Shown piece after piece: positions 27,001-57,000 of a stretch of DNA of 64,000 nucleotides (position 1 is the stretch's first letter; each line of letters starts with the position of its first letter). The stretch spans positions 32,001 to 96,000 of the forward strand of contig CAWJQC010000008.1 of assembly GCA_963844965.1 (NCBI GenBank), written 5' to 3'. Position numbers: made by a program. Source of the DNA: an uncultured bacterium. Lineage in GTDB: Bacteria; Patescibacteriota; Minisyncoccia; UBA6257; 2-01-FULL-56-20.

Positions 27001-30000
27001 ACCAGTATCATAACCGACGACCTCGTATCCTTTTCCCATCAGAACTTCGGCAAGCACCGAGCCGATGTAGCCCAAATTCCCGGTCACTAAAATTTTCTTA
27101 TCCATACCAATAAATAATAGATGAAAGTATTGTACCGTAAATCGTTTTATCCATCAATTGCTTTCTAATCAATAGCTTCTAACCACTCGACGGGCGTTTT
27201 CATATCAAGTCCCATGTGCGGCCGTTCGGTATTGTAGTAGTGAAGAAAATCGGGAATCTCCTTGCGCCACGCGGCAAGAGTGTTAGGGATACGTCGTAAA
27301 CAGTCCCGCTGAAGCGTTTGGATGAACCGTTCCACATGGCTGTTATCTGTTGGCGTCCGTACGCGCGAGTGGCGATGTGAAAATCCCTGATGCTCGATGA
27401 CCTTGGTAAACCATTTTGAAAACTCCCCGCCACGGTCGGATTGGATTGTGACGAAAGGAAACGGAGCTGCCGCTTGCGCTTGCTGGACGAACCGTGCGCT
27501 TAAGCGGCTTGAGACCTGGGCGGCTGGCCATGCCCACGCCCAACGGGAACATACGTCGATCAAGGCGTACGCATGGAGGTGGTCCATGGCAATACCTTCT
27601 TGCATTGAATCGATCTCAACCAATATGCCTGGCTTTGTGGGCATGGGACGCGGAAGATACTGGTGCCACTTCTTCCATTTTGAATATCGCGTGATACCGT
27701 GGCGTTTGAGTGTACGCTTCACGGACAAAAGGCTAACGGCAATCTTTTCCTCTTCTAGCCGGTGATGGACGATCTCCGCGCATTGGTCCCGTTCGCTGCG
27801 AAGTGCAAGGATGCGGCCAATGACCGCTCGGTCGAGTTCGCGTGGATGATGGTGCGGCCGCGATGAAAGCGTCGGGATGACAAGATGACCGCCTTCGCCA
27901 TATTCCGTGCCCCGCTTCACCCATAACCGGACCGTACAATGGCTGAACCCATACTTCCGAGCGGCCTTGCGGATACTCCACCCGGACTGCGTGAGCGCGA
28001 CTGCTTCCGCCCGTACCCGGGGCAGATGGGGATTCTTGGTGTATGCCATGTACATAGCTTTGCAAATTCTTGGGTGGTTACAAGCTATTGAACCACGACA
28101 TCAATTTGACATTCAAAAGAAAATAGTTTATACTTTCAGCAGTTCTGGACAATTATTCACGCGAGGATTTGCCTTGAGATACGAGAAGAACGAACGCATA
28201 TTGCTCTATAACGAATTGAAGGATGTGACGTGGGAAGAAGGGAAGCATGTACGGCTGGCTGTCTTGCTGTACCGCCATGCGATCGTGATAGCTTGTTCTA
28301 ACCGCGGGCGGCAAAAGGCGGAGTTCGCGAACGGAGAATTCCCTTATTTCGCATATATAGAGACCGTGAACCAGAAACGCGAATGGTCCGGCCGCGGCAA
28401 CAATATTGTGCCGGTCTTGCCAGACGGACGTCTGCTTATGGTCATAGAGGAACGTCCCCCGCACGAGCGCTATCCCGAGAGAGTTAGCAAGGTTAGGCTC
28501 TCAAACGGAAATATTATTACTCTCGGAACCATGAAATCGCTGGAATTTCCAGGCGGCGGCATTGAACCGGGAGAAAAAATAACGCTTGGGATTTTACGCG
28601 AGCTCGAAGAGGAAACCGAAATTCCCGATCAGAGAGTGCTGCTCTACCGAAGAGTGCACCCCATCATAACCTTCGGTTCCGATGTCGCTTCCGCCAATTT
28701 CCAAGCGGTGGTCTACCTCTCCAACCTCCGTTTTGAAAAATGGGCGGAGAACGACGGAGGCCTCCGCGTGGTAGCCCTGACTCCAAGAGAAACGGAATAC
28801 AACGTGGAAACCGGTGCCATCTCAAGCGGCCAGGCAGCCATACACGGCTGGCAGTTCTATAAAGAAGTCGTTGAAGCGAGAGCAAAGCCAGCCGTTATGC
28901 AGCGCCTGATAGACCGCGGCTACTTGTCCATGGAAGAAGTTGAGCTGTGTAAATAACGGCGCCGTCGGCGCGCGGGAGATCCTTCGGAATCGCACCACCC
29001 GCGCGCTTTTTTTATTTTCGCCGTGCGTCTCTTTTGTCCAGATACTTAAGCACCTCCTCCCCCGAAATCAAATCTCCTTTTTTGTAGTATCTTTCCATCT
29101 TCTCAAACTCTTCAGTTAAAAGCTCGCTGCGCGTTCCTTTTTGAATCCCCTGCGAGTGAATAATATGCTCCTCCCATCTCTGCGACATGCCGACAAAGTT
29201 GTATGCCAGAACACGCGCTTTTTCGCGAATAAGTGCCGTTACTGTCGTCACGAAGGCGCGTAACTGATGAAGCGGCGGGGCAACGATATATAAAGTTCTC
29301 CATTTACTTTTCTTCGCGTAACGCACGATTCCCCATGCCTCCGCGTGTGTGCTCGGCGGAAAATCAGAAGAAATCTGTACACCGACTATCTTCCTCTCGG
29401 GAATACCGAGCTTGACGAGTTTCTTCTTCCAGTTCCCGAATCCCGGATACCCATAACCTTTCTTCGCTCCACAGATGGCAATGCGCTTCACCCGCCCAAG
29501 TCTCCAGGCAAGCAATGCGGCCGCGAGGACCGAGGACTCGTTGTCCGCGGTTTCCCCGAAAAGATAGGCGGCATCTGCTGCGCGCGCCGGCGAGGTGTCA
29601 CAGAGAACACGCGTCACCAACTCGTCGAGCTCGAAATACGTGGAGCGAACGCCAGTCGCAGTTCTCATTCCTCCTTCTTTTCGATAACTCAAGCATTTTG
29701 TCGCTCAGACTTCCACGGACGGCAAGTTCTTCGGCTCAACAAGCGGCCAGTTCGCGTCTTTATCTGAAATCACCGCCGGCACCTTGAACGGCCACTCCAT
29801 TTTGAAATAGGAGTCGTTCCAACGTATGCCGTGTTCGTGCTCCGGTGAATACGTCTCGCTCACAAAATATTGCAGTTCGGAGTTGTCTTCCAGAACCTGT
29901 ATGCCACTAGCGCAGCCCTTCGGGCACAAAACCATGTTCTTTTTTTCCGGTCGGAGCTCCACCGAAATCCATTGGCCGTAAGTCGGAGAATTCCTGCGGA

Positions 30001-54000: not shown

Positions 54001-57000
54001 CGGGATGACAAGATGACCGCCTTCGCCATATTCCGTGCCCCGCTTCACCCATAACCGGACCGTACAATGGCTGAACCCATACTTCCGAGCGGCCTTGCGG
54101 ATACTCCACCCGGACTGCGTGAGCGCGACTGCTTCCGCCCGTACCCGGGGCAGATGGGGATTCTTGGTGTATGCCATGTACATAGCTTTGCAAATTCTTG
54201 GGTGGTTACAAGCTATTGAACCACGACACAGTCTTGACAATCCGGATGGGTTAGAAAGGAAATTCCAAGATTTAAATAGATTTGTTAAGGGCAAAGGGGA
54301 AAGAGATCTAGAATTAATTACGACATTCCATTTCTTATCAAAAACAGAGGGGAGCGCAAAAGCGAAAGAGAGACTCAAGGAGTTGAAGGGGGCGACACCT
54401 GAAGAAATAAAATACGCCACGGAAGCAATTAAGCAAATTCCATCATAATGGGTCCAGCAATCACATTAGAAGAAGCCAAGGTATTGGGAGATAGAGACGT
54501 CCTTAATGCAGTGAGAAACCCTGATTCTAATGAGGGGGGTGTTTTTAAGATTGAGAAGGGGGCGGAAATCCACAACGACCCGCTTGTCGAAATAGGAATT
54601 GCTATAAGAAAAGTGGAGAGGCTAAGTTCGTCAAAAGACTAGCCGATAATCCGAGCAAGCAACTCGAGTTATCTCAAGAAAATTGCTGAAATAAAAAAGA
54701 TAGATATCATTGTTTAAACCTTCCTCACCGCCAGCCAGATTTCTTTGTCTTCAAATTTCGTTGTTTCTTCCGCGTCAAATTTTTCGGATTTTTTATATTC
54801 TATTTCGCGCGCGCCGGTTTCTTTTTTCAGCAACTCCTCCTTCTTGCCCAAGACAAGACGGATTTCCGCAGGGAATACGGCCGACAAAATCATTTCGTCT
54901 TTGGGCTTCAGGCCCGCTCTCTGCCGCAGTTCCTGGACCATGCGCACCACCTCGCGCAAAATCCCCTCTTCGCGCAATTCCGGCGTGATCGCTGCGTCCA
55001 ACTCAATCTCGCCCTTCATCTTTGAGTCCACAACAACTTCCTTGACATTCACCTCTTCCGCCAAAACCGCAAGTAAATCTTTGTTTGTTTTTAATTTTTG
55101 ATTCTTAATTTTTAATTTTTGCAATGGCTGGCGGACCTTGATTCCCGCCTCCGCCCGCTTTGCAAGTCCCAAGCTCGCGAGCCGCCGCACCTCGGCCATA
55201 GCCTTCAACAATTTTGAATTTTCAATTTTCAATTTTGCACTGGCAGGCCAATCGTGCAGGTGCACGGAATTTTTATAACCGAAGCTTTCGTGTAAATATT
55301 CCGCAAAGAACGGCATGAACGGTGCGGTCAACTTGGTTGTTTCACGCAAAACAAATCCCAATGTCGCCGAAGCCACCTTGAAATCCGCCTGACTTTGGGG
55401 CTTTTGCAGTCGCCTCCGCGAACGTCTTATATACCAGCGCGACAGGTCATCAACGAATTTTTCTATCGAAAGCGCCGCCTCGCGAATTTCATATCTGTCA
55501 AGATTTTTCGTTACACTAGCGACGGTTTGGTTGAGGCGCACAAGGATCCAATTATCCAAAACGTTTTTACTCGCCGTCGGCAGCTTTCCAACTTTAGCCG
55601 CTGACTCCGCATACGTCCGATAGAATACGAATGAATTCCAAAGAAGGAGGTGGAAGCGGCGATATGCCTTAAGAATTTCTGCCTCGTCAAAACTTTTCGG
55701 CTCGCCCAGGGGGGTTACGGTATAAAAATACCAACGCACCGCATCGATTCCGTATTTCCGTATTACTTCCCAAGGATCAACCACATTACCCCTGGATTTA
55801 GCCATTTTCTGCCCGTTCTTGTCGTTTATAAGCCCGAGCGATACAACATTCTTATATGGCGATTCGTGCCCCAAGGCGGTCGCGATGGCAAGCAACGTGT
55901 AAAACCAGCCGCGCGTCTGGTCCATCCCTTCGGCGATGTAATCGGCTGGATAATCCAAACCACGAGGCACGTATCCCACAACACGACCAACTTTTGTGTT
56001 GCGTGTCACGTGCTTTGTGCTTTGTGCGAACGGATAGTGAGCCTGAGCGAACGGCATCGCCCCCGAGTCGTACCACACGTCGGCAACTTCCTTCACCCGT
56101 GAAATTCTCTTGCCGCATCTGGGGCATTTTATGGAAATCATGTCGGCGTAGGGGCGGTGCAGGTCAACCTCGCCGGTGTCGTTCCTCGGAATTATCTTCA
56201 GTTCCAATTTGTGGCACTCCGCAGGCGCGACGAAATCGCTTCCACGGCTCACTTTTTCCACGACCGCTTTCTTTTCGCTCCAGCCAAGCGCTACCTGGTT
56301 CAGCATCCAAACCGGATATTCGTGCGTTACTAAAAGTATGTTCCTGCCCTTGTACTTTTTTTCCAGGTCCCGCAGCAGATCCCAGAGGCGCACGCGGAGA
56401 TCACGCAACGATTCGCCCCCTTCCGGCCCTTTTTCAAATCTTTCCGCATGCGTAGGGAAAAGTTCCCTGTACCTACCTTCGGGCTGCCCCTCCAGTACAC
56501 CCATATTTATCTCATGGAGCCGCCTGTCAAAAATAATCTTCTCCACACCAAGCGTCCGCGCGACAATCCTTGCGGTTTCTTGCGTTCTCAGAATATCGGA
56601 GGCGATAACCAAATTCATTTTATTTCCGGTCTCCTCAAGCGCATCCTTAAGTTTTTTGGCCGATTCTTCAGCCTCACTCTTGCCTTGCGGCGTAAGGTGA
56701 TACTCGCCCCGACCGCTGTCTATCACGTGAGCAAGAAGCGTCTCGGAAAATCCGTGGCGCATCACCCAATAATTATTTTTCGGGCCGCCGGCCAACCGAT
56801 CCAGTTCATCCAAACCGCCCACGACTTCCACATTCCCGCAACTTTTGCATTCCCAGATCGGCAACGGCGTTCCCCAATAACGCTCGCGGGAAAGATTCCA
56901 GTCCTTAACTTCTCTCAGCCACTCGCCGAAGCGACCGTCTTTTAGATGCTCCGGAACCCAGTTGATTTTTTTATTGTTTGCGAGGAGTTTATCGCGCAAC

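Follow-up and report, generated by a model that had tools for sequence, protein, structure and literature searches.

Insertion sequences (ISs) of the IS481 family, such as IS481 of Bordetella pertussis, are elements of ~1 kb that have TG..CA tips, generate short target site duplications (TSDs), and encode, in a single open reading frame (ORF), a transposase related to that of IS3 and comprising a helix-turn-helix (HTH) region and a DDE (rve) core. IS481 proper targets the sequence NCTAGN. In an ISfinder-based account of the family, termini are TG..CA and TSDs range from 2 to 15 bp, being mostly 6 bp (PMC10045372). An IS481-family element of Pseudomonas fluorescens SBW25 inserts into repetitive extragenic palindromic (REP) sequences, has a highly conserved sequence on one side of every insertion, and includes one copy that has no TSD and is linked to a rearrangement (PMC11708052), while the IS1202 subgroup, whose transposases are related to those of IS481 and IS3 (PMC10045372), is reported to target XerCD (dif-like) sites (10.1101/2022.12.17.520857). 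Here, we describe two copies of a small IS481-like IS in a 64,000-nucleotide (nt) stretch of a contig from an uncultured bacterium of the Patescibacteriota (CAWJQC010000008.1, positions 32,001–96,000; hereafter "the window," in whose coordinates all positions are given). The best explanation for the whole of the evidence is that these are two genuine chromosomal copies and that insertion is oriented and occurs 5 bp upstream of the hexamer TTGACA, a reading to which we assign a probability of roughly 0.8.

The element resembles IS481 in its single-ORF transposase, its size, its tips, and its short TSD, but differs in having a TSD of 5 bp rather than the usual 6 bp, a transposase score below the family cut-off, Patescibacteria as hosts, and, in place of NCTAGN, an asymmetric target, TTGACA, located 5 bp outside one end. 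It resembles the SBW25 element in family, in sequence-directed and oriented insertion, and in having a TSD-less copy, whereas the SBW25 element has a REP target rather than a promoter hexamer, a length of ~1.3 kb, 49-bp inverted repeats (IRs), and an apparent TSD of 4 bp. With the IS1202 group it shares an IS481/IS3-related transposase and homing to a specific functional DNA site of the host, but it differs in its hosts and TSD classes and in its target, which for the IS1202 group is recombination sites on plasmids. Site-homing relatives are already known; what is new is the target rule. By analogy only, its promoter-proximal logic is also that of the yeast elements Ty3, Ty1, and Tf1, which integrate a fixed short distance upstream of transcription start sites and thereby spare coding sequence in a compact genome, with Ty3 being recruited by TFIIIB. 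Those elements, however, are unrelated long terminal repeat retrotransposons tethered by transcription factors.

A self-comparison of the window, shifted by 26,128 bp, delimits the two copies: nucleotides 27159–28100 (copy 1, minus strand) correspond to nucleotides 53287–54228 (copy 2, minus strand) over 942 bp in direct orientation, with identity lost at once outside both ends. A repeat finder returned the same pair, with its reported length capped at 300 nt. These limits, the length, the orientation, and the presence of one nucleotide difference agree in full with an earlier note made on the same DNA. The sole mismatch, T at 27727 versus C at 53855, specifies Leu in the transposase of copy 1 and Ser in that of copy 2. 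Since Ser is common to copy 2, a third copy (P0121), and an 87%-identical relative (P0002), the Leu of copy 1 is the derived state. A divergence this small (one difference in 942 bp) points to recent transposition or gene conversion. An intact transposase ORF of 296 codons lies on the minus strand in each copy (27165–28055 in copy 1; 53293–54183 in copy 2, the product of which is identical to P0001), uninterrupted and with no programmed frameshift. In copy 1, the left IR (IRL), on the 5′ side of the transposase gene, is TGTCGTGGTTCAATAGCTTGTAACCACCCA (28071–28100, minus strand), reading TGTCGTGGTTCAATAGCTTGTAACCACCC, and the right IR (IRR) is TGCTTTCTAATCAATAGCTTCTAACCACTC (27159–27188, plus strand), with its tip 6 nt from the transposase stop codon. 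The two ends, TGTCGTGG... and TGCTTTCT..., are imperfect IRs with TG..CA tips and a common core, TCAATAGCTT(G/C)TAACCAC. The 20-nt IR core occurs four times in the window, all within the two copies, with zero occurrences expected. In relatives that have 66% protein identity, 27 of the first 28 nt of IRL are the same, and the elements are 942–943 bp long; the IRs are conserved over ~28 nt.

We gathered further insertion sites through a look-up of the 66%-identical transposase and through a metagenome scan with 27 nt of IRL alone, leaving the flank unconstrained. Exact TTGACA is present at an offset of 5 nt outside IRL in 17 of 23 distinct sites (binomial P ~ 5e-59; background rate in the DNA concerned, 1.9e-4 per position), and both window copies follow this rule. 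The five bases between the IRL tip and the hexamer are variable, with the last of them, immediately preceding the hexamer, being C in about 14 of 22 sites. No motif was seen in the IRR flanks. TSDs of 5 bp are present at three independent sites: TCAAT at copy 1, and GGGGT and GAAAA in relatives. The five variable bases being the TSD, the hexamer belongs to the host; the possibility that TTGACA and the 5 nt are part of the element was rejected, since those 5 nt differ between sites and recur as a duplicate at the other end. As read from these sites, insertion is target- and orientation-specific: IRL lands 5 bp upstream of TTGACA, and the transposase gene points away from the hexamer.

Most of the occupied hexamers are, to judge from their context, −35 boxes of real-looking sigma-70-type promoters that fire away from the IS. 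Specifically, a −10 hexamer with at least five of six matches to TATAAT at 16–18 nt follows 13 of the 17 occupied hexamers, as compared with 7 of 97 other TTGACA hexamers in the same sequences (Fisher P = 3e-9). The −10 hexamer at occupied sites is often preceded by TG, a Shine–Dalgarno-like motif and a start codon come soon after it in several flanks, and, in about half of the flanks, an ORF pointing outward from the IS stays open as far as the end of the 400 nt considered. Among the six non-exact sites are one TTGACC and one TTGCCA, each with a strong −10 box; exact TTGACA outnumbers one-mismatch variants 17 to 2, even though the variants are far commoner in the DNA. Full-text literature searches found no IS described as targeting promoters or the −35 hexamer in such a fashion, which is no proof of absence from the literature.

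The enrichment of good −10 boxes could be explained by survivorship alone: insertion might be random, without any target recognition, and the association with TTGACA and promoters might have been left by purifying selection in gene-dense genomes, as compact genomes would purge genic insertions. Selection cannot, however, fix an exact 5-bp distance, restrict the hexamer to the IRL side, or retain the exact hexamer in preference to its one-mismatch variants, and copy 2 is located at a TTGACA without a −10 box and within coding sequence. We consider random insertion a very improbable account of the pattern. A different possibility is that targeting proceeds via the transcription machinery, with the transposase recruited by a promoter-bound sigma factor or RNA polymerase holoenzyme and inserting at the upstream edge of the −35 contact. 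Recruitment of this kind would fit the full promoters at 13 of the 17 occupied hexamers, the strong −10 boxes retained by the non-consensus TTGACC and TTGCCA sites, and, on general knowledge of promoter architecture, the insertion point at about −37 to −41, just beyond the footprint of sigma region 4. It fits poorly with the hexamers that have no credible −10 box (copy 2 and a few other sites) and with the strong preference for the exact hexamer over functional variants, and the similarity of the N-terminal HTH to Sigma70_r4_2 is generic and sub-threshold (E = 0.036). We regard it as unlikely. The related idea that the HTH mimics sigma region 4 was dropped, the HTH similarity being only generic and sub-threshold. 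We also dropped the idea that TTGTCA in the flank serves as the −35 box of a hybrid transposase promoter, because the −10 candidates in IRL are poor (AATAGC at 17 nt and TAGCTT at 19 nt).

Oriented insertion upstream of TTGACA would be explained most directly by a transposase that itself reads the hexamer. We infer direct reading because a −10 box is missing from some hexamer-bearing sites (copy 2 and a few others) and because exact TTGACA is strongly preferred over one-mismatch variants. IS30 and IS911 insert next to sequences that resemble their own ends, and a possible mechanistic parallel is offered by the present target, which, on the transposase strand, reads TGTCAA and resembles the GTTCAA motif of both IRs together with the TGTC tip; this resemblance, a match of only 4 of 6 bases, might provide a basis for recognition. 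IS30 and IS911, however, target the IR-like sequences of IS copies and not an element of host promoters. In compact genomes, genic insertions would then be selected against, leaving survivors enriched for true promoters. An element inserted in this position would spare both the gene and the core promoter and would replace whatever lay upstream of the −35 box. The chemistry of transposition is presumably IS3-like (copy-out, paste-in), given the family relationship.

Copy 1 provides a clean example of the rule. Its flanks read ...CATCAAT-IS-TCAAT TTGACA..., with a perfect 5-bp TSD, TCAAT, read directly at 27154–27158 on the left and at 28101–28105 on the right. On the IRL side, starting 5 nt from the IS tip, is a predicted promoter, TTGACA-17-TATACT (28106–28134, plus strand; 11 of 12 matches), that faces a NUDIX gene. 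On the other side is a promoter-like site, TTGATG-17-TACAAT (27129–27157, minus strand; 9 of 12 matches), for a divergent epimerase gene; its −35 box overlaps the left TSD, so that target duplication has left both −35 boxes intact. As far as its flanks tell, copy 1 inserted cleanly, in the space between two divergent promoters placed back to back. The earlier note had copy 1 splitting the glycan locus, which is right insofar as the copy is inside a large glycan-biosynthesis locus, but no gene is broken: the IS sits between the −35 boxes of the divergent promoters. To its left are an NDP-sugar epimerase gene (26056–27105, minus strand), then a gene for an NTP-transferase/HAD protein, and, farther left, GT2, GT9, and more epimerase genes; to its right are genes for the NUDIX protein, RfbC, C-methyltransferases, a GT4-like glycosyltransferase, and a GT10 fucosyltransferase, together with fcl, gmd, and the gene for an O-antigen-ligase-like protein.

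Three observations concern genes of this locus. Position 25937, in the NTP-transferase/HAD gene beside copy 1, has a one-base indel relative to contig L010 of the Logan short-read assembly (introduced below), with the window keeping the reading frame and the Logan version breaking it, so that frameshift variants or errors occur in both directions. Two fcl paralogues (GDP-L-fucose synthase; 36170–37231 and 37092–38166) are in tandem next to gmd and a GDP-mannose hydrolase-like NUDIX gene; the upstream paralogue is frameshifted. An ORF at 19485–19970, similar to rhamnosyl O-methyltransferase/CmcI, covers only positions 50–206 of a 206-position profile, and its N-terminus may have been lost to a frameshift or to a wrongly called start.

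Copy 2 begins 14 nt past the stop codon of trpS (53270–53272), in line with the position after trpS that it had been given previously. Its IRL-side flank (54229–54239, plus strand) consists of CAGTC, the expected TSD, and TTGACA, which is followed by no good −10 box (3 of 6 matches). Its IRR-side flank (53282–53286) is CCAGC, within ...GGCCAGC, which is not a copy of CAGTC but would match if one T were lost; the junction sequences are the same in Logan contigs, that on the IRR side being in contig L009. An ORF fragment that has no start codon of its own (54230–54445, plus strand) abuts the IS and aligns to the C-terminal ~68 residues of proteins of ~150–200 residues; the homology reaches the IS edge, and the missing 5′ part is absent on the other side of the IS. 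Having no clean TSD and abutting a 5′-truncated gene, copy 2 is, on the evidence of its flanks, not a simple fresh insertion. It may have landed at a TTGACA within a small accessory gene located between trpS and ileS, and afterwards have lost one base of the left duplication or undergone deletion or recombination on the IRR side.

How much of this history is needed is a close call. Copy 2 could be a plain insertion in which the left duplication lost one base (CAGTC to CAGC), next to a gene fragment already truncated by some unrelated event; alternatively, its IRR side may have been altered by deletion or by recombination between IS copies. The near-match of ...GGCCAGC to the expected ...CAGTC, with one T missing, has an estimated chance probability of ~2–4%, and two homologues of the fragment are themselves short (54 and 67 residues), making a short gene conceivable. 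On the other hand, the fragment has no start codon of its own, and its homology to the C-terminal part of proteins of 150–200 residues, the 5′ part of which is not found across the IS, extends as far as the IS edge; and IS copies without a TSD are commonly attributed to adjacent deletion or to recombination between copies (PMC11708052). We give the plain insertion with a one-base loss slightly less than an even chance.

Beyond copy 2, ileS (54714–58427, minus strand) has a His_Phos_1 histidine-phosphatase domain inserted at residues ~554–719, an architecture also seen in a related genome (L021, 3549–7334). A 46-nt direct repeat, 93% identical, is present at 59305–59350 and 59948–59993, close to or at the 3′ ends of two adjacent ORFs on the minus strand: the second repeat copy spans the stop codon of ORF 59948–61672, and the first is ~130 nt downstream of ORF 59480–59890, suggesting paralogous genes or a duplicated gene end.

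The earlier note named, as what would undo its claim, a second copy that was only an assembly duplication. This has been largely excluded by a separate short-read assembly, Logan (run ERR10755942), that contains the same organism, with matches to the window of >99.9%. Contig L009 corresponds to window positions 51303–53316 (two substitutions), L010 to 24983–27188 (one 1-nt indel), and L011 to 54199–55938 (one substitution); L009 and L011 carry the junctions of copy 2, and three of the four IS/flank junctions are thus reproduced. Each of the three contigs ends exactly 30 nt inside the IS. Logan uses k = 31, which makes 30 nt equal to k−1, and a stop at this point means that unique flanking sequence meets a repeat node and that no abundant empty-site allele branches off at the flank/IS boundary. 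The perfect 5-bp TSD shows that the two flanks of copy 1 belong together. The flanks of copy 2 belong to a single neighbourhood because, in an IS-free relative (L021; RNase J 89% and TrpRS 68% identical), trpS and ileS are likewise neighbours, convergent and separated by 136 nt.

An assembly artefact, whether a second copy arising from a duplicated or collapsed repeat or flanks misjoined across the repeat, would gain some plausibility from metagenome contigs of this IS group, in which a given left flank is often combined with various right flanks (L012 versus L014 and L018), from the want of a clean TSD at copy 2, and from several frameshifts in the window that hint at imperfect consensus quality. 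Set against the three reproduced junctions with their 30-nt stops, the TSD that ties the flanks of copy 1, the trpS and ileS neighbours in the IS-free relative, and the fact that the copies differ at one base and have flanks unique to each, an artefact has, in our estimation, scarcely any likelihood. The pair of repeats as such is real and ordinary.

The transposase has an N-terminal HTH (HTH_23/HTH_28/HTH_32) followed by an rve and rve_3 integrase core (Pfam), in which the motifs VEIDSM, IQSDRGG, and SHVERF provide putative catalytic residues D149, D207, and E243, with 35 residues separating the last two (DD35E spacing; an assignment made from motifs). Its top NCBIfam profile is that of IS481 transposases (NF033577, transpos_IS481; E = 2.9e-54, 184.5 bits, model positions 2–282 of 284). 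The second-best profile, that of IS3 (NF033516), scores 106 bits versus a cut-off of 160 and covers the catalytic half alone. Membership in the IS3 family was rejected, as the transposase is encoded by a single ORF and not by OrfA and OrfAB joined by a −1 frameshift, and the IS3 profile is below threshold. A further likeness is to the sequence GATTCAATAGGTTGTA, which presumably lies at a terminus of IS481. The IRL core GGTTCAATAGCTTGTA of the present element resembles that sequence, GATTCAATAGGTTGTA, which occurs inside Bordetella IS481 and is taken from a diagnostic primer (PMC4667485). The earlier assignment to the IS481 family is borne out by the best profile, the HTH and rve/rve_3 domains, the TG..CA tips, and the 5-bp TSD, but not by the score, which is below the curated cut-off; on these features, the element is filed as IS481-like, with the profile threshold not reached.

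Homologues of the transposase are numerous (2447 at E <= 1e-10), and the named ones belong to the Parcubacteria group. Very many are on lone contigs of ~940–1000 bp, as is typical of a multi-copy repeat assembled from short reads. TrpRS and RNase J encoded in the window likewise find their best matches in metagenome-assembled genomes (MAGs) of Patescibacteria, Paceibacterota, and Liptonbacteria. Three proteins make up the exact cluster: the two window variants, which share a contig of 156,184 bp, and P0121, which is on a 331,718-bp contig. P0121 is a 275-residue form in which the first 48 codons are replaced by flanking sequence. The search for additional copies that the earlier note had proposed has thus turned up a third, 5′-truncated copy on another contig, and, by sequence identity, there are at least two full copies and one 5′-truncated copy in the same or a near-identical genome. 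Look-ups of the exact transposase product (296- and 294-residue forms of both copies, P0001, and P0121) retrieved no locus. A scan of genome contigs with the IR core gave mostly chance matches, the related ones being L003, L007, and L008. A tblastn search of plasmids with the transposase gave no match at E <= 1e-20, and the element was not found in a scan of viral contigs.

Two arrangements were seen among the metagenome contigs of relatives. A single combination of left flank and IS (DHH protein side, TSD GGGGT) is joined, in different metagenome assemblies, to at least three different right flanks when L012–L019, L037, and L039 are compared with L014 and L018, through either chimeric assembly or real IS-mediated rearrangement. 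In L038 (4158–5155), only 29 nt separate two related IS copies, which are arranged so that the IRR of the first faces the IRL of the second; the second copy adjoins TTGCCA.

Several points weigh against the conclusion that two genuine copies have inserted, in a set orientation, 5 bp upstream of TTGACA. As to the copies themselves, the window has several frameshifts, and the one differing nucleotide could have come from faulty assembly; the look-up with the NUDIX product, which is partial at a contig edge, did not yield the fourth junction (28100/28101); the Logan run is possibly from the same sample as the MAG, making it an independent assembly but perhaps not independent data; and no empty-site sequence for either window copy, or for any insertion, is among the retrieved loci. 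As to the target rule, copy 2 has no perfect TSD; clean TSDs are present at three sites only, with many metagenome contigs spanning the IS having no matching TSD, probably through chimeric assembly; and specificity is read from surviving natural insertions rather than de novo events, which confounds selection with mechanism for the −10 enrichment, though not for the fixed 5-bp offset and the orientation. As to the family, the IS481 profile score of 184.5 bits is below the curated cut-off of 224, and the IS481 leucine zipper, LZ_Tnp_IS481 (PF13011), is matched only faintly (E = 0.015; 16 bits, below the cut-off of 22.2); a few homologues have a precomputed LZ_Tnp_IS481 match.

As direct repeats of 942 bp, the copies are potential substrates for recombination, and a recombination scenario is plausible on the sequence. 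The earlier note placed rny, rnj, secG, and trpS in the interval between them; rny (42271–43635), secG (46125–46340), and trpS are there and intact, along with a tRNA-Leu gene (48548–48632) and much of the glycan locus, but rnj is broken in the assembly by two +1 frameshifts, near 50,063 and 50,457, and cannot therefore, as assembled, be counted as an intact essential gene. The repaired RNase J is 91% identical over its full length to that of a relative. Because the interval contains intact rny, secG, tRNA-Leu, and trpS, precise deletion between the copies would probably be lethal; duplication of the interval is conceivable. Five +1 frameshifts are located between the copies (37790–37860, 44280–44345, 46800–46880, 50030–50100, and 50420–50500), affecting the second fcl paralogue, the gene for cofactor-independent phosphoglycerate mutase (iPGM, gpmI), the gene for an Opp-type binding protein, and the RNase J gene twice, and at four of the five a neighbouring base seems to have been duplicated. 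Their origin could lie in errors of sequencing or assembly or in real, recent decay into pseudogenes. Insertion errors of a long-read assembly were suspected; at the sole comparable indel (25937), however, it is the window that has the intact frame and the short-read contig that has the broken one. Whether core genes in this 25-kb interval are frameshifted by error or by real decay bears on any argument about essentiality. Also in the interval are a gene for a phage-holin-4-family membrane protein just upstream of secG (45605–46030) and a 203-codon ORF with a weak HNH-endonuclease match just downstream of the tRNA-Leu(CAG) gene (48748–49359), each of which may be a remnant of mobile DNA.

Taken alone, the repeat pair is nothing unusual: the IS is active and has two full copies, through which rearrangement could take place. 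A more far-reaching reading is that this IS clade, widespread in Patescibacteria, is a dedicated promoter-homing transposon that finds its sites through a −35 hexamer read by the HTH, or through promoter-bound holoenzyme, and that inserts at a fixed upstream position in one orientation. We hold this reading only tentatively and think it rather more apt to be wrong than right. Were it true, the element would be a bacterial counterpart of the Ty3-like safe-haven strategy, not yet described for any IS, and could explain how ISs persist in the tiny, gene-dense genomes of the Candidate Phyla Radiation. The insertion rule in itself, with promoter and gene both left intact, would provide a clear bacterial case of promoter-proximal safe-haven targeting and a concrete reason for IS survival in such streamlined genomes. 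It would predict that new copies arise upstream of promoters, with possible effects on UP-element or activator input, and it would make the element a natural marker of promoters in organisms whose transcription signals have hardly been studied.

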